From NCBI GenBank assembly GCA_046536775.1, contig JAWDMD010000026.1, forward strand, positions 1 to 6,174: DNA of 6,174 nt, given 5' to 3'. How positions within the stretch are numbered: position 1 is the first letter of the stretch; every line of letters begins with the position of its first letter. This DNA is from Candidatus Nanopusillus sp. GTDB taxonomy: Archaea > Nanobdellota > Nanobdellia > Nanobdellales > Nanobdellaceae. A program made the position numbers and the translations under genes. The notes beneath the pieces are model-generated. The model was not told the origin of the DNA. It made no database searches and saw nothing but the letters and a program-made list of their open reading frames with translations. Shown here one piece after another: positions 1 through 6,103 of the stretch.

Positions 1-815
1 GCAAGTACGAGGGGTCGTTCGCGGAGCTGATAGGCGCGAGGGTCCTGGACCTCTCGGAGCCGCAGGGCCTGAACCCGTACGACGTCTTCGAGACGCCGGC
101 CGCGGCCGCGTCCTTCATAGCTGACCTCGCGGGGATAGTCGAGCCGGACCTCCGCGCGGAGCTGAACCTCATACAGGCGGGGGACGTGTACGAGCTGGTG
201 GACAAGGCGGAGGGATCCCTCAAGAAGAGGCTGGAGGCCGGCCTGAAGCCATTCGAGAGCCTGTGGTCCGCGAGGAGCGACCTCTACGGACGCCAGGTGT
301 TCGTCCTCAGCAGCATAGCGAGCTCCGCGGTGCGCGACGCGGCCGCCTACTTGGTGCTCGCGTGGATCTGGAGGACGGTGAAGAAGCTGCCGGTGCGCGA
401 GCGCAAGATGATCGTGGTGGACGAGGGGTGGGCCTTCGTGGAGACGGATCCCCGCACCGGGAAGCCGTACTTCCCGGGGGCGGTCGGGTTCGTGCCCGAG
501 ATAGCGAGGACGGGCCGCCACTACAACGCGGCGTTCATCATCGCGACGCAGAGGGTCTCGGACATGATGTCCGGGCCGGGCCGCGTCGTGATGGAGAGCG
601 CGGCCACAAAGATAGTCCTGAGGCAGGATTCGGCCGCCATCGACCTGCTGGCCGGGCCGCTCTCGCTCTCGCCCGAGGAGCAGAGGTTCATACTCAGCGC
701 GCGGGTCGGCCAGGGCCTGCTCATATCGCCGCTGGGCCACGTCCCGTTCCGCAACCTGCTCTCGAAGGGCGAGCTGGAGAGGTTCACTACTAAGCCCAAG
801 GAGGTCAGCCGCTAG
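1..815 (+). CDS. VirB4/TrbE/CedB-type (HerA-FtsK superfamily, AAA_10-like) secretion/conjugation ATPase, C-terminal ~270 aa; the 5' end lies outside the window
   Basis: Frame 3 is open from base 3 to TAG 813-815. I hand-translated 3-185 as KYEGSFAELIGARVLDLSEPQGLNPYDVFETP... with no stop, so the GTG at 186 in the ORF track is an internal codon. Motifs in the translation: LNPYD; a Walker B-like block KMIVVDEGWAF; ARTGRHYNAAFIIATQRVSDM; and the tail ELERFTTKPKE, which resembles the FTTxPxE ending of VirB4/TrbE-like ATPases. Walker A must lie upstream of the window. GC3 is high. Confidence 0.85.
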   Translation, partial: KYEGSFAELIGARVLDLSEPQGLNPYDVFETPAAAASFIADLAGIVEPDLRAELNLIQAGDVYELVDKAEGSLKKRLEAGLKPFESLWSARSDLYGRQVFVLSSIASSAVRDAAAYLVLAWIWRTVKKLPVRERKMIVVDEGWAFVETDPRTGKPYFPGAVGFVPEIARTGRHYNAAFIIATQRVSDMMSGPGRVVMESAATKIVLRQDSAAIDLLAGPLSLSPEEQRFILSARVGQGLLISPLGHVPFRNLLSKGELERFTTKPKEVSR

Positions 816-819
816 AGGC

Positions 820-843
820 GCGCATACTTGTGCAAGTATTACC
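820..843. repeat. Degenerate copy (P1) of the locus palindrome: GCGCATACTTGTGCAAGTATTACC
   Basis: The right half-site GCAAGTATTACC (832-843) is identical to the copies at 3942-3953 and 5707-5718. The left arm is degenerate and the centre has a C->T change. It starts 4 nt after the ATPase stop codon, between convergent genes, and no TATA box is nearby. Confidence 0.6.
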
Positions 844-914
844 GGCCGCGGCCCGGCGGAGCTCCCGCTGGGGATCGGGCGGGTGAGAAAAGGGGGTCAG
901 GGAAGGGGGGGAGG

Positions 915-1472
915 TCAGGCGCGCTTCAGGGGCCACCTATGCAGGAACTTTCCCTCGTGCAGGCGATACCGGTACCCGCCGAGGACCAGCCCCGTCTCGG
1001 CGGGCGCCGCCCGCACCCGCTCCAGGAACTCCCGGAGCGGGGGCCCCGCGAACGGCCCCGCCGGCTCGCCCGACGGGGTCGTCACTAAGACCCACTCGCC
1101 GTGCCCGTTCTTTGAGCGCCTCCACTCCAGGGCCTCCAAGGCCCTGGAGAGGGCCGCATCGCCGTTCCCCGCGTCGGGCCTCAGGGGCTCCATAACCCCC
1201 GGGGCCGGCGCCGCGGGCTCCTTCGCCTCCGCCTGCCCGGCCACGGGCGCGGCCGCCGGCGCGGCCGGCGCCGGGGCGGGCGCCCCAGCGATCGCCGGGC
1301 CCGGCAGGAACTGTAGGGCGCGGGCCAGCACCACCGCGCGCTCCTCGGGCGATGCCCGCGGGAGCGCGGCGACGATGGCCACGCGCACCGGGGCTACGAC
1401 CTCGCTCAGCCACCGCTCGACCGCCGCGACGGCCTCCTCCCCCTTCTTCTCGGACTTGTTCTCGCTCGACAT
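915..1472 (-). CDS. Hypothetical two-domain protein (185 aa): helical N-domain, Ala/Pro-rich linker, and a C-domain with WRRSKNGHGEWVLV...GGYRYRLHEGKFLHRWP
   Basis: ATG at 1472..1470 is preceded on the minus strand by TATA GTTAAAAG (rc of 1497-1504) with a 24-nt spacer. Amino-acid composition is natural and GC3 is high. The overlapping track ORFs 937..1578(-) and 883..1503(+) are Arg/Gly/Ala-rich shadow frames. The linker is aa 57-92 (nt 1197-1304). I recognise no family. Confidence 0.75.
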   Translation of the reverse strand: MSSENKSEKKGEEAVAAVERWLSEVVAPVRVAIVAALPRASPEERAVVLARALQFLPGPAIAGAPAPAPAAPAAAPVAGQAEAKEPAAPAPGVMEPLRPDAGNGDAALSRALEALEWRRSKNGHGEWVLVTTPSGEPAGPFAGPPLREFLERVRAAPAETGLVLGGYRYRLHEGKFLHRWPLKRA

Positions 1473-1496
1473 TTCCGCGCCCCCGTGCCGAGGGGC

Positions 1497-1504
1497 CTTT
1501 TAAC
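1497..1504 (-). promoter_or_regulatory. TATA box (GTTAAAAG on the minus strand) for the 915..1472 gene
   Basis: It is an AT island in GC-rich DNA, 24 nt upstream of the ATG at 1472. This is the same geometry as the other promoters in the window. Confidence 0.6.
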
Positions 1505-1516
1505 GCGCCGGCGTGC

Positions 1517-1532
1517 ATATCTGCGCAGATAT
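1517..1532. repeat. Variant palindrome (P4) ATATCTGCGCAGATAT, a perfect 16 bp
   Basis: It shares the TGCGCA centre and the TATTAC right flank (1529-1535) with the main palindrome family. Its centre is 52.5 nt upstream of the ATG at 1472. The equivalent 24-bp footprint (1513-1536) ends 8 bp from the TATA box at 1497-1504. Confidence 0.6.
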
Positions 1533-1633
1533 TACGCGCCGCGCTGGTCGCCGCCGCCGTCCGCGAGGGCCTGCTCACGGGAGGGCTCTGGGAGTGCGCC
1601 CACTGCCCCTACCGCCGCGAGTGCCGGCCCGGG

Positions 1634-2566
1634 TTGCTGCCGGGGATCCCGGAGGGGTCCGCGGTCGCGGTCGCGGAGGTGGACGGCGCATTAGTTGATG
1701 ACTCGGAGCGCCGCCGCGCCGCATTGGCGGCCGCCGGCGCGTCGCTCGACGCGCCGCCGTGGAGGCTGACGGGCGAGGCGCGCGCGAGGTTCCTCGAGGC
1801 GTACTACGCAGAGGAGGCGCTGCGCCACGATAAACCGGGCCCACTGCTCGCGAGGGCGCTACGCCGCCCGGAGGGCTCGCGCCTCATCGTGGTGACCTCG
1901 CGCCCAGAGCGCCTGAGGTCCGCCACGGAGGCGGAGCTCCGCGGGCTCGGCGCCGCGCCGGACGCGCTGATCATGGCCCCGCCCGGCACCGAGGACGACT
2001 GGCGCGAGCGCATGCTGGAGCTGCTGGCCGAGGAGTACGGGCTCGCGCTCGTGCTGGACCCCGACCCGTGGGTCAGGAGGGCGGCCGAGCGGCTCGGGGC
2101 CGAGGCGCCGAGGCCGCGAGGGCGCGCGCATATAAGGCCGCGCGGAGTCCTTGGCTCTTGTTGTACTTGTTGTTGTGCTTGTGTTTGTTTATATAGCACT
2201 TCCACAGAAACCCACCCAATGGCGCTCGTTCAGGTCCTCGAGGAGGCCCTGCGCAGCGGCGACGAGAGGGAGATCGAGAGGGCCGTGAAGGAGCTGAAGA
2301 AATGGCTGGACTGGTTCGGCCCCCGGTACTTCGGGCTGGCGGTACAGGACACTTGGATCGCGGCGCCGCCCGAGAGGCGCCAGATGATCGAGGAGATGGT
2401 GAAAGAGCTGGAGAGTGTGCATAAGGAGGCCGCTTGGTGGGCCCAATACTACATAAAGCGCGCCAAGGAGGCTGAGAAGAAGGCTGAGAAGGATGAGCGC
2501 TCCGGCGAAATGTCAGGGCAGGAAGAGGGCGGTAGGCGACATCCTGAAATGTGCGCGCGTGGCTAG
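1634..2566 (+). CDS. Composite stop-free ORF: a HAD-superfamily phosphatase-like module (to about 2107), a TG-rich island, then a helical 115-aa module
   Basis: Frame 2 is uninterrupted. The first canonical start beyond the divergent gene is TTG 1634, and the next is GTG 1679. The track ATG at 1352 overlaps the divergent gene's 5' end, TATA and palindrome, and its N-terminal extension (1352 to about 1535) is Arg/Pro-rich shadow-frame sequence. HAD-like blocks: AVAVAEVDGAL (EVDGAL = 1676-1693), LIVVTSRPE (1883-1909), LVLDPDP (2048-2068). The start is unresolved, and no in-frame stop occurs before TAG 2564-2566. Confidence 0.5.
   Translation: MLPGIPEGSAVAVAEVDGALVDDSERRRAALAAAGASLDAPPWRLTGEARARFLEAYYAEEALRHDKPGPLLARALRRPEGSRLIVVTSRPERLRSATEAELRGLGAAPDALIMAPPGTEDDWRERMLELLAEEYGLALVLDPDPWVRRAAERLGAEAPRPRGRAHIRPRGVLGSCCTCCCACVCLYSTSTETHPMALVQVLEEALRSGDEREIERAVKELKKWLDWFGPRYFGLAVQDTWIAAPPERRQMIEEMVKELESVHKEAAWWAQYYIKRAKEAEKKAEKDERSGEMSGQEEGGRRHPEMCARG
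2129..2218 (+). promoter_or_regulatory. AT/TG-rich promoter-like island inside the open frame: TATA-like CATATAAG (2129-2136), TG-rich tract (2151-2190), TATA-like TTTATATA (2188-2195)
   Basis: GC content drops sharply here. In frame it reads as eight TGT Cys codons, whereas the upstream module's Cys codons are TGC. TTTATATA lies 23 nt upstream of ATG 2219, matching the leaderless geometry. The T-rich runs (GTGTTTGTTT) could also act as an archaeal terminator for the upstream module. Confidence 0.5.
2219..2566 (+). CDS. Helical/coiled-coil hypothetical protein (115 aa), nested in frame within 1634..2566 and probably expressed independently
   Basis: ATG 2219 has its own TATA-like element at the standard distance. 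The translation is clearly protein-like: MALVQVLEEALRSGDEREIERAVKELKKWLDWFGPRYF...KRAKEAEKKAEKDE. GC3 is high. This call is an alternative to, or isoform of, the long call. Confidence 0.6.
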   Translation: MALVQVLEEALRSGDEREIERAVKELKKWLDWFGPRYFGLAVQDTWIAAPPERRQMIEEMVKELESVHKEAAWWAQYYIKRAKEAEKKAEKDERSGEMSGQEEGGRRHPEMCARG

Positions 2567-3623
2567 GGTGCAACGCGAGGTCGTCTTCGAGAGCCATAAC
2601 TGGTTCCACGAGAAATCTGAGATCACCTTTTACAACGAGTGCGATGAGGAGCTGGACGTCATATGTGTGGATAGGCGCGCCCTCAGCCTGAATCTGGGCG
2701 CACTCTTCGAGTATAAGTACGCGGCCGTCCTGCGGGCGTACGGTGAGGACGGCACGTGGCTTAACCTGCTGAGGAGCGCAGACCCGTGCCTGGAGGGCGG
2801 CGGCCCAGGGCACATATGCTTCAGTCTCCCGGCGATCAAGCTGAGACCCCATGAATACTACACCGTGCAGCTCATGTACGAGGGGTCGCCGCTCTCAATT
2901 GAGGAGCCCTCCGCGGTGGTGAAGCGCTACACGCGGCGGTCACTGCTTTCCGCGGTCAAGCCGTACAGGGACGTCCCCGTGCTCATGTGGAACTATCCGC
3001 CCGGAAGAGCTCCGAGTATAATGCCGCAGTCGCTGTACACCGTGTTCCGCATTAGGGAGGACTGGTTGGAGATCGACGAGGGGTGGGCCAGGAAGTCCTT
3101 AGAGGAGGGTGAAGGAGTGATGGGCAAGTTGAAGAGTAAGCTCGACGTGATCGCGCTCAGCAATCGCGCGCTCGGCTACCGCATGGAGATTCCTTCAAGC
3201 ACGGAAAAGCTGGAGCTAGAGGAATTAGGGCCCGTTATCCCGAGGCCAGACGCGCGGCCAGCGGAGAGATTTGCGGCATTATTATTTATGTGGGCGTGGT
3301 TATTGGAGGTACCATATTACATTACACTCAAGCTTAGGGTGAATTTATTGTACAGATTGCTCGCGGTTCTCGTTGAGATCCTAGGGTTTCTCACGGCGGC
3401 CCTCTCATTGGTCTTCATGTCCCTTGTGCTCTGGCGCGGACAACAATCGATGATCGGCGATGGCCTGCTCCTGCTGACCACACTCTTCATCATAGTGCTG
3501 GGCAACTACTTGACGCTACCCAAGGGCGGCCCGCTGAGGTACGGGCTACTCGGCGGCGCGCTGGCCGCGGCCGCAGCGTCTGTGGCGGGGCTCGCAGTCA
3601 TGATGTTGCTGCGTATGCTCTAA
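2493..3623 (+). CDS. Membrane protein (376 aa): soluble beta-rich N-domain of about 255 aa plus about 4 C-terminal TM helices
   Basis: It is a long ORF with natural composition. TM segments: FAALLFMWAWLLEVPYYITL, LLAVLVEILGFLTAALSLVFMSLVLW, GLLLLTTLFIIVLGNYLTL, YGLLGGALAAAAASVAGLAVMMLLRML (about nt 3270-3620). Start alternatives are ATG 2493 (74-nt overlap with the upstream ORF, and frame 3 has the higher GC3 across the overlap), GTG 2559, and GTG 2568 (2 nt after the upstream stop). I recognise no family. Confidence 0.75.
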   Translation: MSAPAKCQGRKRAVGDILKCARVARVQREVVFESHNWFHEKSEITFYNECDEELDVICVDRRALSLNLGALFEYKYAAVLRAYGEDGTWLNLLRSADPCLEGGGPGHICFSLPAIKLRPHEYYTVQLMYEGSPLSIEEPSAVVKRYTRRSLLSAVKPYRDVPVLMWNYPPGRAPSIMPQSLYTVFRIREDWLEIDEGWARKSLEEGEGVMGKLKSKLDVIALSNRALGYRMEIPSSTEKLELEELGPVIPRPDARPAERFAALLFMWAWLLEVPYYITLKLRVNLLYRLLAVLVEILGFLTAALSLVFMSLVLWRGQQSMIGDGLLLLTTLFIIVLGNYLTLPKGGPLRYGLLGGALAAAAASVAGLAVMMLLRML

Positions 3624-3739
3624 CCGGGGCTCGCGCGGGCGGTGAAAGTGAACGATATGACCGATCCATAGACTTAGCTATACCGAGGGAGCGTAAATCG
3701 ACGTCCCGATCGGGGGAGTTCGGGCGTAAGTATGAGCCT

Positions 3740-3892
3740 TCAGGCGGCCACACCGAGCACCGTCATCAGCGCGGCCCCCAGCGCGGCGGGCGCCCAGGCG
3801 AGGTCGTCGACCTCCCTGCTCCTCAGGTCCTGGTGGGCCGCCGCGGCGTAGCTCGCGGCCACGAGCGCCGTGCCGGCGAGCGCCGGGTCCAC
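3740..3892 (-). CDS. Unlisted small ORF, 50 aa, two hydrophobic helices with a charged loop: MDPALAGTALVAASYAAAAHQDLRSREVDDLAWAPAALGAALMTVLGVAA. Candidate helical-hairpin (VirB2/CedA1/TedC-style) pilin or small membrane protein
   Basis: I reverse-translated it by hand. GTG (rc of 3890-3892) to TGA (rc of 3740-3742) is 153 nt, and an in-frame TAG (rc of 3914-3916) lies 7 codons upstream, so GTG is the only possible start. Of 50 codons, 49 end in G/C. The start is preceded by CTTTTTAG (rc of 3914-3921), 3 nt, GCGGCCGCACG and 7 nt, the same cassette as the divergent pilin-like gene. The track ORF 3678..3914(-) over this region is an Arg/Gly shadow frame. Confidence 0.55.
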   Translation of the reverse strand: MDPALAGTALVAASYAAAAHQDLRSREVDDLAWAPAALGAALMTVLGVAA

Positions 3893-3913
3893 GCGCGCCC
3901 GTGCGGCCGCGCA

Positions 3914-3921
3914 CTAAAAAG
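3914..3921 (-). promoter_or_regulatory. TATA box (CTTTTTAG on the minus strand) for the 50-aa ORF
   Basis: It lies 21 nt upstream of the GTG at 3892 and 8 bp from the edge of the palindrome. Confidence 0.55.
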
Positions 3922-3929
3922 CGCCACGT

Positions 3930-3953
3930 GGTAATACTTGCGCAAGTATTACC
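3930..3953. repeat. Perfect 24-bp palindrome (P2) GGTAATACTTGCGCAAGTATTACC, the putative operator of a divergent promoter
   Basis: The reverse complement of GGTAATACTTGC is GCAAGTATTACC. It lies between two divergent TATA boxes, with gaps of 8 and 9 bp. It is an AT-rich island. Confidence 0.8.
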
Positions 3954-3962
3954 GGCGTTGCC

Positions 3963-3970
3963 CTTTTAAG
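3963..3970 (+). promoter_or_regulatory. TATA box CTTTTAAG for the pilin-like gene
   Basis: A 20-nt spacer (CCGCGGCCGCACGTGTCGCC) separates it from GTG 3991, implying a leaderless transcript. Confidence 0.65.
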
Positions 3971-3990
3971 CCGCGGCCGCACGTGTCGCC

Positions 3991-4992
3991 GTGAGGCGCA
4001 GGGCGGCCATATCCCAGATGCTCGGCACCCTGATACTGATCGCGATCGTGCTGGTCGCGGCCGTGCTGGTGTACCATGCCGGAATGTTTGCCGCGCAGCG
4101 CGCCTCCGGCGGCGCGGGGATCTCGGTGAGCGGCGCCTCCGTGGAGGCGTTCCCCGGCGGCGCGTTCGTGACGCTCACGGTCACGAACACCGGGAGCGCG
4201 CCCGGGTACGTCTCGGTGGCGCTCTACCAGGGAGGGTCGCGGGTCTTCTGGGCGCCGGGCGCGCCCGGGCTGCTGTACCAGATATACACGAACCCGAACA
4301 TAATGTGGGACGAGCCGCCCGAGTCGCTCGTGTACTCGGCCCCGCTGGCCCCCGGCAGCTCCTTCCAGTACGACGGCACCTGGAGCGCGCCGGTCGGGCC
4401 CTGGACCACGCCCGGCGCCGGGTCGGCGCAGGACGTGAACGGGCAGACCCAGCCCAACGTGATAGACAACATGCAGTATGAGTACACGGGCGGCGCGCCC
4501 TTCCCGAACCCGCCCGTCTCCGCCCCCGGGAACGAGTTCGCGATCAAGGAGATAGGGTACATGGTGGTGACCCAGCCCACCGTGTTCTACGTGGACATAG
4601 ACGACGGCGGGGCGCTGGGCGCGATCCCCTACAGCCCCGGCGTTTTCACTCAGGAGACCTCGTGGCTCGGGGGGACCTCCAACCCCGCGAACCTGATAAG
4701 CGCGTGGTACGGCCAGCCCGCGACTGTACACTCCTCGGGCACGGTGCAGCCCGGCACCTACCTCGTGGAGTACGACTACTTCCAGTTCGGCGGCGGCGCC
4801 TACTGGAGCCTGTGGTCGAGCGCGCCGGTGTATTACTACCACCCGGTGCTCCTGTACCCCGGGCAGTCCGCGATTCTCAACTACACGCTCGCGGCGCAGC
4901 TGCAGCCCGGCTCGCAGTGCACGGTCTCGGCGACCATAACAACGCCGGCCGGGACCGCCACCGCATCCGCGACCGTCACGGTCGCGCCTTGA
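3991..4992 (+). CDS. Type IV pilin-like protein (archaeal class III signal peptide) with a beta-sandwich region, a PA14-like carbohydrate-binding domain and a Thr/Ala-rich C-terminal beta domain (333 aa)
   Basis: The N-terminus MRRRAAISQMLGTLILIAIVLVAAVLVY matches the archaeal prepilin pattern: basic residues, small residue, then ISxxxGTLxLIAIxxV. PA14-like blocks lie at aa ~92-277 (nt 4264-4821): GLLYQIY, NEFAIKEIGYMVVTQPTVFYVDIDDGGAL, VQPGTYLVEYDYFQFGGGAYWSLWSS. GC3 is high, and every overlapping track ORF is a shadow frame. Confidence 0.85.
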   Translation: MRRRAAISQMLGTLILIAIVLVAAVLVYHAGMFAAQRASGGAGISVSGASVEAFPGGAFVTLTVTNTGSAPGYVSVALYQGGSRVFWAPGAPGLLYQIYTNPNIMWDEPPESLVYSAPLAPGSSFQYDGTWSAPVGPWTTPGAGSAQDVNGQTQPNVIDNMQYEYTGGAPFPNPPVSAPGNEFAIKEIGYMVVTQPTVFYVDIDDGGALGAIPYSPGVFTQETSWLGGTSNPANLISAWYGQPATVHSSGTVQPGTYLVEYDYFQFGGGAYWSLWSSAPVYYYHPVLLYPGQSAILNYTLAAQLQPGSQCTVSATITTPAGTATASATVTVAP

Positions 4993-4995
4993 GCA

Positions 4996-5658
4996 TCACG
5001 TGAGAGCCGCCGCCAGCTTCAGCACCATGTCCACCGCCCACATGTGCTCCGGTGGGGCGAGCACGGGTATCCGGTCGACATTGGCCATGAGCTCTCCCAG
5101 GGTCCACTCGAAGGCCTCGTCATCCGCGCGGCCGTCGAGGCGCGCGACTAAGATGGCCGCGTGCCTCGCCAGGGCCGAGAGGACCTCCATTGGGAAATAT
5201 TGGTCCTCGAGTCCGCCCGCCCGGTCGGCGACCATCTCGTACTCGCGCATCAGCGCGTGGTAGTACACGTAGAGATTGGTGTTCTCGGCGAGGTCCGGAA
5301 AGCGCTCGTCCAGATAGCGCAGGAACTCCCCACGCCTCTCCGCCAGGGCCTCCGCCTGCCTCCCCGCGAACTCGCGGAGGATCTCCCACTGCTCCCCCTC
5401 GCCCAGCCGCGAGAACAGCCGGATGAGCTCCGCGAGCTCCGGGTCCGCCCTCCCCAAGGCGTCCTCCAGGCCCGCGAGCTCCGGCCCCTCCGGGGAGCCG
5501 AGCTCCCAGCGCACGAGGCCGACCAGCGCGTCGACCACCTTATCCACCGGGATCCCCGCGCCCACCCCGCGGGCGGGGTGGGACCTCTCGCGGATCTCGC
5601 GCGCCGGCAGGATCTCCAGCGCGCCCGCCAGCGGTGAGGGACTCGCGCCCATGTCCAC
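4996..5658 (-). CDS. Hypothetical acidic helical protein (220 aa)
   Basis: GTG at 5658 (an alternative ATG lies at 5652) is preceded on the minus strand by TATA CTTATATT (rc of 5680-5687) with a 21-nt spacer, and by palindrome P3 8 bp further upstream. Composition is natural and GC3 is high. It converges on the pilin-like gene with a 3-bp gap. I recognise no family. Confidence 0.75.
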   Translation of the reverse strand: MDMGASPSPLAGALEILPAREIRERSHPARGVGAGIPVDKVVDALVGLVRWELGSPEGPELAGLEDALGRADPELAELIRLFSRLGEGEQWEILREFAGRQAEALAERRGEFLRYLDERFPDLAENTNLYVYYHALMREYEMVADRAGGLEDQYFPMEVLSALARHAAILVARLDGRADDEAFEWTLGELMANVDRIPVLAPPEHMWAVDMVLKLAAALT

Positions 5659-5679
5659 GCACGCTTCTGCGCCGGGCGC

Positions 5680-5687
5680 AATATAAG
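5680..5687 (-). promoter_or_regulatory. TATA box (CTTATATT on the minus strand) for the 4996..5658 gene
   Basis: It lies 21 nt upstream of the GTG at 5658 and 8 bp (5688-5695) from palindrome P3. Confidence 0.6.
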
Positions 5688-5695
5688 ATCGGTGC

Positions 5696-5717
5696 GTAAT
5701 ACTTGCGCAAGTATTAC
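5696..5717. repeat. Perfect 22-bp palindrome (P3) GTAATACTTGCGCAAGTATTAC
   Basis: It is the same sequence as P2 without the outermost base pair. Its centre is 48.5 nt upstream of the GTG at 5658. Its right arm contains the TAA stop (rc of 5714-5716) of the 5714..6103 gene. Confidence 0.8.
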
Positions 5718-6103
5718 CGCGCGCGGCCTCGCCAGGTCGGCGGGGGCGCGAGGCGCGGCGCCAGCCACACCGCGAAGACGTTGTTCACAACGACCGCGCC
5801 GTTGAGTATGATGAGCGCGGCCGCGGCGCCGTGGAACAGCGGGATGATGCGCGGCCGGGCGAGCGCCCTCGCGTATATGTAGCGGAGCGCGAGCGTGAAT
5901 ATCAGGACCCTCACGAGCGCGTCCGCGGCGAGCCCCCCGGCGAGCCCCAGCGCGCCGATGAGCGAGGCGGTCACGGGGTCGCCCTCCGCGACCGGCAGGC
6001 TCGGGTCACTCAGCGCGAGGTACGTGAGCAGGACGTCGGCGGCCACTAGGAGGTCCGCGGCCAGCGCGGCCGCGATCAGGGAGCGGCGCGTGGGCGGCCT
6101 CAC
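5714..6103 (-). CDS. Small polytopic membrane protein (129 aa), DUF5658-like
   Basis: GTG at 6103 lies 20 nt downstream (minus strand) of CTTTTAAG (rc of 6124-6131). Hydrophobic segments: LIAAALAADLLVAADVLLTYLAL, LIGALGLAGGLAADALV, IIPLFHGAAAALIILNGAVVVNNVFAVWL. The pattern D-x2-LT-x2-AL ... EGDP resembles the D..LT...L...E.NP signature that I recall for the DUF5658 family. That is a memory-based assignment and has not been searched. Confidence 0.7.
   Translation of the reverse strand: MRPPTRRSLIAAALAADLLVAADVLLTYLALSDPSLPVAEGDPVTASLIGALGLAGGLAADALVRVLIFTLALRYIYARALARPRIIPLFHGAAAALIILNGAVVVNNVFAVWLAPRLAPPPTWRGRAR

Follow-up and report, generated by a model that had tools for sequence, protein, structure and literature searches.

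We analysed a 6,174-nucleotide stretch of DNA (positions 1 to 6,174 of contig JAWDMD010000026.1, assembly GCA_046536775.1, deposited as Candidatus Nanopusillus sp.; the whole stretch is called the window here), which carries part of a conjugative element and, between the genes of this element, four copies of an A+T-rich palindrome. The C-terminal part of a VirB4/TraC-like conjugation ATPase (3..815, plus strand) marks the element as conjugative, and its closest named relatives are both VirB4 proteins of Conexivisphaera calida (69–70% identity). Next to it lies a conserved gene of the conjugation module that encodes a 185-amino-acid protein (gene B, 915..1472, minus strand; family F7, 10 loci). 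Further downstream, a 50-amino-acid open reading frame (ORF; 3740..3892, minus strand) is transcribed divergently from a gene for a 333-amino-acid pilin-like protein with a class III signal peptide (3991..4992, plus strand; family F8, 10 loci), which matched UpsA and the archaellin/pilin N-terminal domain. N-termini resembling that of the 50-amino-acid ORF (MDP..ALAGTALVA) were found behind the same promoter layout in a related metagenomic locus, L060 (compared loci carry an L and a number). The remaining genes are gene H (4996..5658, minus strand), which encodes a 220-amino-acid, all-helical protein without a known domain, and gene 5714..6103. An insert of 1.8 kb (2129..3930) holds ORFs 2219..2566, 2493..3623 and 3740..3892 and has a G+C content of 61%, compared to 71% outside it, values that correct the roughly 67–70% given in an earlier note on this DNA.

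The earlier note had described four intergenic palindromes, and both reading of the sequence and a pattern search of the window confirmed all of them, with no motif match in 200 dinucleotide-preserving shuffles of the window. Their consensus is GTAATA-YYWGY/RCWRR-TATTAC (the slash marks the centre), represented by two perfect 22-mers and two copies with one degenerate arm. In site S1 (821..842; CGCATACTTGTGCAAGTATTAC), one arm is perfect, the left arm is degenerate and the centre has one substitution; the site is located where the VirB4-like gene (stop at 815, plus strand) and gene 915..1472 (stop at 915, minus strand) converge. Site S2 (1514..1535; TGCATATCTGCGCAGATATTAC) likewise has one perfect arm, and its 16-bp core (1517–1532) is a perfect palindrome; two perfect arms are present in the orthologous sites of L031 (9362) and L056 (10492). 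Sites S3 (3931..3952) and S4 (5696..5717) are the same perfect 22-mer, GTAATACTTGCGCAAGTATTAC. S3, which abuts the right end of the insert, lies midway between the divergent promoters of the 50-amino-acid ORF and the pilin-like gene and extends to a perfect 24-mer with its flanking G and C (3930–3953), and S4 directly follows the stop of gene 5714..6103.

Three of the four sites are associated with promoters. S2 lies in the promoter of gene B, whose TATA box TTAAAAGG (1496..1503, minus strand) begins at a distance of 22 nt from the site centre, with the ATG following 31 nt later. S3 is flanked by the TATA boxes of the pilin-like gene (TTTTAA, 3964..3969, plus strand) and of the 50-amino-acid ORF (TTTTTA, 3915..3920, minus strand), and S4 lies in the promoter of gene H (CTTATATT, 5680..5687, minus strand). 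At all four promoters, the TATA hexamer starts 21–23 nt from the site centre. The distances from site centre to start codon given previously proved to be exact, being 49.5 nt from S3 to both 3991 (plus strand) and 3892 (minus strand), 48.5 nt from S4 to the GTG at 5658 (minus strand), and 52.5 nt from S2 to the ATG at 1472 (minus strand). The site edge is indeed upstream of the TATA box, yet the reported gap of 8–9 bp has to be revised, as the TATA hexamer begins 9–11 nt past the edge. Four window promoters carry a site, in agreement with the proposal that at least four transcription units share it, but S1 faces no promoter. Beside S1, a terminator-like module (858..905, minus strand) follows the 3' end of gene 915..1472 and consists of a G+C-rich inverted repeat (858–874) and GAGAAAAGGGGGTCAGGGAAG (885–905), which on the strand of this gene reads as a T-run followed by CTGACCCCC.

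Distribution of the sites in mobile elements

The palindromes had been regarded as specific to this locus. This did not hold, as the motif belongs to a whole family of mobile elements, represented here by 64 metagenomic loci and 8 further loci retrieved by protein homology. Scanning metagenome contigs with a 19-mer yielded 70 loci, of which the 64 with a G+C content of at least 50% (most 60–74%) were kept; these stem from a limited set of metagenome assemblies. Their 345 kb contained 211 sites, comprising 135 of the form GTAATA-N10-TATTAC and 76 with one perfect arm. In all 135 GTAATA...TATTAC pairs found within 40 nt, the arms were separated by exactly 10 nt. The sites are also conserved at orthologous loci, since six loci with 80–94% nucleotide identity to the window (L031, L038, L056, L048, L017 and L064) retained them. 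The equivalent of S4 follows the ortholog of gene 5714..6103 in L031, L038, L064, L048 and L058, with different DNA beyond the site.

Because the metagenomic loci had been selected by the motif itself, an independent set was fetched via a small ribbon-helix-helix (RHH) protein encoded by some of the elements. The 18.4 kb of non-redundant DNA in this set contained 17 sites without arm mismatches, three with one and one with two mismatches, compared to a chance expectation of at most 0.06 for two mismatches and none for zero or one. The half-site matrix derived from this sample is GTAATAYYWGY, 11 bp in length. A scan of a genome collection returned 11 matches, all attributable to chance in A+T-rich bacteria, a viral collection gave three chance matches, and phage and plasmid collections gave none. 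Exact look-ups of three proteins of the window were likewise without a match. A literature search found no description of the motif, and none of another repeated palindrome in thaumarchaeal conjugative elements.

The motif is carried by integrative-conjugative or plasmid-like elements that belong to Conexivisphaera-like Nitrososphaeria from hot springs. Related loci encode giant pilin-like proteins, transcription factor B (TFB), ParB-like proteins, DNA methylases, a Cas4-like nuclease, the RHH protein and ThermoDBP-related proteins, together with a putative PrimPol-like replication protein that was recognised by eye without Pfam support; the majority of the remaining proteins belong to no known family. 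ThermoDBP-RP, TFB and TraG share elements with both C. calida VirB4 copies. The most informative locus regarding the host is L015, part of an 87-kb contig, in which an element with an archaeal integrase (the one locus with an integrase) ends at tRNA-Glu. Three sites are present in 4.2 kb of this element; the adjoining 9.9 kb of host DNA, with the same G+C content of 70%, has none, and a further 76 kb of related, partly redundant host DNA was likewise devoid of sites. Thus, instead of being scattered genome-wide, which the earlier note had named as evidence for a generic repeat, the sites are confined to the elements as far as the host DNA examined is concerned. Ribosomal protein S10 of the L015 host shares 88% identity with proteins of Conexivisphaera sp. 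and of Nitrososphaeria metagenome-assembled genomes.

Thaumarchaeal integrative-conjugative elements (ICEs) are all reported to encode TFIIB, mostly beside a ParB-like gene (Krupovic et al. 2019, PMC6563490). The elements studied here resemble these ICEs in VirB4, pilins, TFIIB, ParB-like proteins, integrase and tRNA target (PMC6563490), and the whole set, including the integrase at a tRNA gene and a Nitrososphaerota host, was recovered when pooled over several contigs. They differ in the repeated palindrome, of which that study makes no mention, its sole match to 'palindrom' being a CRISPR title in the references. In three loci, a site occupies the middle of a divergent promoter pair, one member of which drives the TFB gene (L018 8637, L039 731 and L061 13738). 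In two others, a protein combining a ParB N-terminal domain, a ParB helix-turn-helix domain and an MT-A70 adenine methyltransferase adjoins a site (L062 1171–2472 and L031 1156–2358).

A different palindrome was found in the closest named relatives. The two C. calida elements (44 kb) lack GTAATA-N10-TATTAC and instead have CCCCGTAAATTTACGGGG or a close variant of it in nine intergenic positions (L085 5922, 6734, 8362, 9423 and 20186; L086 5672, 6921, 7426 and 15671); in several cases, a T-run at the end of a gene is about 40–55 nt away. One degenerate copy is present in L087, and no repeated palindrome was detected in the more distant VirB4 relatives L090–L092 (47–50% identity). The same arrangement with a changed sequence fits the pattern expected if a regulator and its operator had diverged together. 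L085 also contains a non-coding 27-bp tandem repeat of about 9–12 copies (13108–13330), which includes AGCTAGGGACGAACTATAACTCAAGCT.

Site placement relative to promoters and gene ends

The sites are overwhelmingly intergenic, and those scored as intragenic mostly reflect ORFs that a crude gene caller had predicted spuriously or extended too far. About 60% of intergenic gaps of at least 30 nt hold a site, whatever the orientation of the flanking genes. Counting TATA boxes from the site centre in 290 non-redundant flanks revealed a sharp register. Whereas no TATA box started at offsets 13–19, 35 flanks had a start at 20–24 and one at 25; offsets 26–27 were again empty, and a second, broader group of 40 flanks followed at 28–39. 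The single flank with offset 12 (L082, a locus with 54% G+C) is probably due to chance. Helical phasing of the offsets was considered and dropped, as the second cluster is too broad. Start codons were located 27–31 nt after the TATA start, also at the four promoters of the window, as expected of leaderless transcripts, which places the proximal site at about −61 to −40, abutting the TFB recognition element (BRE) without overlapping it. The proposed position just upstream of BRE/TATA rather than over it was therefore borne out, both for the four window promoters and for about 46% of 169 non-redundant sites.

Of these 169 sites, 46% adjoin at least one promoter, and another 20% are flanked by a terminator-like module only. 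This second type of flank consists of a conserved G+C-rich inverted repeat followed by GAAATGGGGGTCAGAAAAA, which, read along the strand of the upstream gene, gives a T-run and then CTGACCCCC. Its position is constrained as well, since 24 of the 26 matches to GGRGTCARRAAA in the loci fall 53–78 nt from a site centre. Judged by this placement, the sites mark the borders of transcription units and not promoters alone.

Independent half-sites and a candidate regulator

Variation among the sites was informative about the kind of molecule that would recognise them. In 54 unique sites that had not been selected by the search pattern, symmetry at the five inner positions was 2.70 of 5, compared to 2.59 expected for independent half-sites (P=0.23), and perfect palindromes were seen once with 2.2 expected. 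Hybrid sites that join two half-site types, such as CTTGC/ACTGA, are common, and no Rfam family matched at the sites. The half-sites thus vary independently without covariation between the arms, which favours protein binding over a hairpin or cruciform. The idea of a binding site for a dimeric factor can hence be kept in a broader form: the sites behave as targets of a symmetric protein, dimeric or tetrameric, that would read two half-sites.

No other DNA-binding family is as widespread in the loci as the RHH family (RHH_1 domain, CopG-like; about 65 amino acids, for example MAGVRTSVMLDEELYTRLMHAAVDSKCSISVLVERALRRGLDEGWLPGERCARRRRN), which is present in 11 of them. The promoter of the RHH gene itself is exceptional in that a single half-site lies between TATA box and start codon. 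One subfamily has GTAATACTTGC at this position, and the others have CAAGTATTAC or a half-site that is weaker or partial. True isolated consensus half-sites (GTAATACTTGC) occur four times in the 345 kb, and all four are found between TATA box and start of RHH genes. As isolated consensus half-sites are restricted to this core promoter, the RHH protein is the best candidate for the binder. In line with this, all eight loci fetched via RHH homologs (59–68% identity), for which the motif was not used, carry 5–7 sites each, and tblastn detected no RHH homolog in the motif-less relatives fetched via VirB4 (L085, L086, L087, L090 and L092). The RHH protein is linked to the type of element in the window by overlapping gene neighbourhoods (L030 and L031).

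On balance, we consider the palindromes to be probable operators of a symmetric DNA-binding protein encoded by the elements, with the small CopG-like RHH protein as the best candidate. Each site would then comprise two independent 11-bp half-sites placed at the borders of transcription units. A protein bound upstream of BRE/TATA could touch the TATA-binding protein (TBP) or TFB, the latter possibly being the one encoded by the element, or it could influence the activity of the unit in some other way, as activator or repressor. Since a site never covers BRE/TATA except at the RHH gene, the bound protein is suggested to act alongside the initiation complex at its targets. At the RHH gene, the half-site between TATA box and start codon is in the position expected for autorepression.

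Several observations weigh against this interpretation. Sites are as frequent in convergent gaps (31/50) as in tandem (73/120) or divergent ones (28/60), and the 35% of non-redundant sites that lack both a promoter and a terminator-like flank are no less well formed than those at promoters; promoter control is therefore not the sole reason for the sites. Conversely, the window promoters of gene 5714..6103 and ORF 2219..2566 have no site, and no RHH gene is present within the window. The 12 arm positions are almost invariant, beyond the needs of binding specificity, which could be explained by copying or gene conversion. The co-occurrence of RHH protein and motif is suggestive and confounded by shared ancestry. 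Finally, the operator spacing of classic Arc/Mnt-type RHH proteins is 11 bp, in contrast to 16 bp from arm to arm here.

The products of 915..1472 and 4996..5658 had been put forward as binders. Compared to the RHH protein they are the poorer candidates: neither showed a DNA-binding signature, and neither had a match in Pfam, NCBIfam, PHROGs, PADLOC or PDB. In the model of the 915..1472 product, the N-terminus is helical and the C-terminal domain is of the alpha/beta type. The order of elements in this domain could fit a winged helix, but a fold search gave no significant match (best E=0.43). A homolog with 35% identity is also encoded by the motif-less Conexivisphaerales element L090. The structure model of the 4996..5658 product is of low confidence (predicted local distance difference test score, pLDDT, of 49).

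A bolder version of the operator model is that the elements possess a private transcription system, in which the palindrome-bound factor would recruit the element's TFB and switch dozens of units together, independently of host promoters. The repeats would double as joints for cassette exchange, and each lineage would have its own palindrome, as with CCCCGTAAATTTACGGGG in C. calida. We regard this full version as unlikely.

Alternative explanations and related systems

Comparison of the window with related loci revealed rearrangements at two of its sites. In one alignment, the left flank and left arm of S1 match site 1602 of L038, and its centre, right arm and right flank match site 2071 of L038, site 10064 of L031 and site 11894 of L056. 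The two sites of L038 enclose a small pilin gene that is missing from the window. According to this alignment, S1 is a chimeric scar of two sites after loss of the pilin cassette. In a second alignment, the 1.8-kb insert 2129–3930 was without counterpart in L038, L048 and L056 and ended exactly at the first base of S3; it resembles a foreign cassette that was inserted where this site begins. These examples indicate that, as a side effect of the near-identity of the repeats, recombination between them can delete, insert and swap gene cassettes.

The palindromes might accordingly exist for module exchange, mediated by a site-specific enzyme or by homologous recombination, with promoter proximity being secondary. 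Apart from S1 and the insert, such a role would account for the near-invariant arms, for intact sites being equally frequent in gaps without promoters, and for the orthologs of gene 5714..6103, in which the site 3' of the gene is kept and the DNA on its far side differs (L031, L038, L048 and L058). It does not predict the sharp TATA register, the exclusion zone or the half-site inside the RHH core promoter. Moreover, no recombinase co-occurs consistently, the integrase being restricted to a single locus, and ends of high-identity matches were not enriched at sites (33% within 30 nt, compared to 29% at random intergenic positions, over all loci). We therefore find it doubtful that the sites exist for recombination, which is a real consequence of the repeats rather than a demonstrated purpose.

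Another possibility is that the palindromes are ParB/KorB-type loading sites, bound by a ParB-family protein of the element for partition and long-range silencing. The elements do encode suitable proteins, F57, which combines ParB_N, HTH_ParB and MT-A70, and F38, which has a GxRRxxA box and matches ParB_N weakly, in agreement with the ParB-like gene that mostly accompanies TFIIB in thaumarchaeal ICEs (PMC6563490). Like those of KorB, the sites occur at several classes of distance from promoters and also away from them, and KorB, when at its OB sites, reaches promoters as far as 1.5 kb away (PMC11790492). On the other hand, the sites resemble neither parS nor OB (OB sequence as quoted in PMC11790492), and the small integrated element in L015 has sites and no ParB gene in the part seen. 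Furthermore, F38 homologs are present in the motif-less L090 and L092, and the isolated half-sites point to the RHH promoter rather than to parB promoters. Nothing in the sequences ties the ParB-like genes to the sites, and we consider a ParB-type role quite improbable.

The consensus is a perfect palindrome, the sites often follow the conserved T-run/hairpin module at gene ends, and they are present between convergent genes, all of which would suit a bidirectional terminator or insulator that, as a hairpin or cruciform, halts read-through between units. Termination in archaea, however, depends on oligo-T and not on hairpins, and the T-run is about 30–45 nt away from the palindrome instead of adjacent to it. 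In addition, the arms show no compensatory changes, many hybrid sites are unable to pair, and Rfam gave no match. The lack of arm covariation together with the missing Rfam match led us to rule out a hairpin or RNA structure, and we consider a terminator of this kind very unlikely; a version in which a bound protein forms the roadblock merges with the operator reading. A selfish repeat of the repetitive extragenic palindrome (REP) or miniature inverted-repeat transposable element (MITE) type without function for the element, as the high copy number and near-identity of the intergenic copies might suggest, is scarcely credible, given a unit of just 22 bp without terminal repeats or target duplications, its absence from the host DNA examined, its retention at orthologous positions in a fixed register with TATA boxes, and the lack of RAYT/TnpA-type genes in motif loci, OrfB/TnpB being seen only in motif-less loci.

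Operators distributed over an entire mobile element, which is how we read the palindromes, are a known kind of system. Small RHH proteins such as SvtR of SIRV1, F55 of SSV1 and the CopG-like ORF56 of pRN1 act on repeated or symmetric sites in their own and a few other promoters of the element. In these crenarchaeal viruses and plasmids, the regulator has just a few sites, which usually overlap the TATA box or transcription start, in contrast to the dozens of sites per element observed here, most of them upstream of the BRE and many away from promoters. With respect to position, the sites are more reminiscent of those of Ptr2 (Methanocaldococcus jannaschii) and TFB-RF1 (Pyrococcus furiosus), where a dyad directly upstream of BRE/TATA is compatible with recruitment of TBP or TFB. 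Ptr2 and TFB-RF1 are chromosomal regulators with few targets, whereas the present sites are on a mobile element with its own TFB; the likeness, drawn from sequence, would thus concern site position. Exchange of modules at regulatory repeats has precedents in the promoter early stem-loop (PeSL) cassettes of T4-type phages and in the motif of the Sulfolobus conjugative plasmids pING/pNOB8, where intergenic repeats with promoter and terminator elements flank variable genes and recombination reshuffles modules. Here, the corresponding evidence comprises two junctions in the window and variable contexts without a statistical excess, and the sequences are unrelated.

The closest parallel in overall design is plasmid RK2 (IncP-1), in which many short palindromic operators of KorB (OB) and KorA (OA) are likewise spread over a conjugative element, some far from promoters (PMC11790492; PMC2665229). 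KorA and KorB are element-encoded regulators that coordinate transfer, replication and maintenance (PMC11790492; PMC2665229), a task that the putative binder might share. The two systems differ in that the present elements use TBP/TFB promoters, belong to another domain of life and have no sequence similarity to RK2. Their sites are also denser, at about one per 1–1.6 kb, with almost invariant arms, an RHH protein is favoured over ParB, and the core promoter is overlapped at the RHH gene only.

What is new is the occurrence of such putative operators in archaeal conjugative elements, their density and invariant arms, their place next to archaeal core promoters together with an equal presence at promoter-less borders, and the lineage-specific sister motif. 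Almost nothing is known about gene control in archaeal conjugative elements or about the reason why thaumarchaeal elements carry their own TFB. The 12 invariant arm positions, the fixed place relative to BRE/TATA, more than 200 natural variants, the RHH candidate and the sister-lineage palindrome provide a testable handle on both. The motif could further serve to detect the elements in metagenomic data, as a guide to their transcription units, and in tests of how transfer genes are coordinated. If the operator interpretation is correct, the elements would also represent an archaeal case of regulatory repeats that double as recombination joints.

Further features of the window and of the related loci were noted. 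Within the insert, ORF 2493..3623 encodes a 376-amino-acid membrane protein, and ORF 2219..2566 has homologs in L052 and L075. Just 5' of the latter ORF, at 2150–2200, lies a T/G-rich tract in which TTGTTGTACTTG is repeated and followed by GTGTTTGTTTATATAG. Gene C (1540–2566) is a deletion derivative of a Cas4-like PD-(D/E)XK nuclease of 407–430 amino acids (family F2; L031, L038 and L056), from which the nuclease core is gone and the cysteine-rich C-terminal part is left; its frame is open into ORF 2219..2566 because of the insert. In L018 (3540–4275) and L052 (3690–4450), a non-coding, partly A+T-rich region of about 730 nt with several inverted repeats lies beside the putative replication-protein gene and, flanked by 3–4 sites, may be a replication origin. 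Genes of the IS605 OrfB/TnpB type (Cas12f-like) are common in motif-less relatives and host DNA (L087 4782–6203, L085 14140–17544 and L093 4709–6088). The most abundant family in the motif loci is F0, with 23 copies of 250–290 amino acids that often form tandem pairs (for example L051 178–1041 and L055 820–2668); it had no match in Pfam, PHROGs or elsewhere, and by eye its sequence pattern is reminiscent of a PCNA-like clamp.

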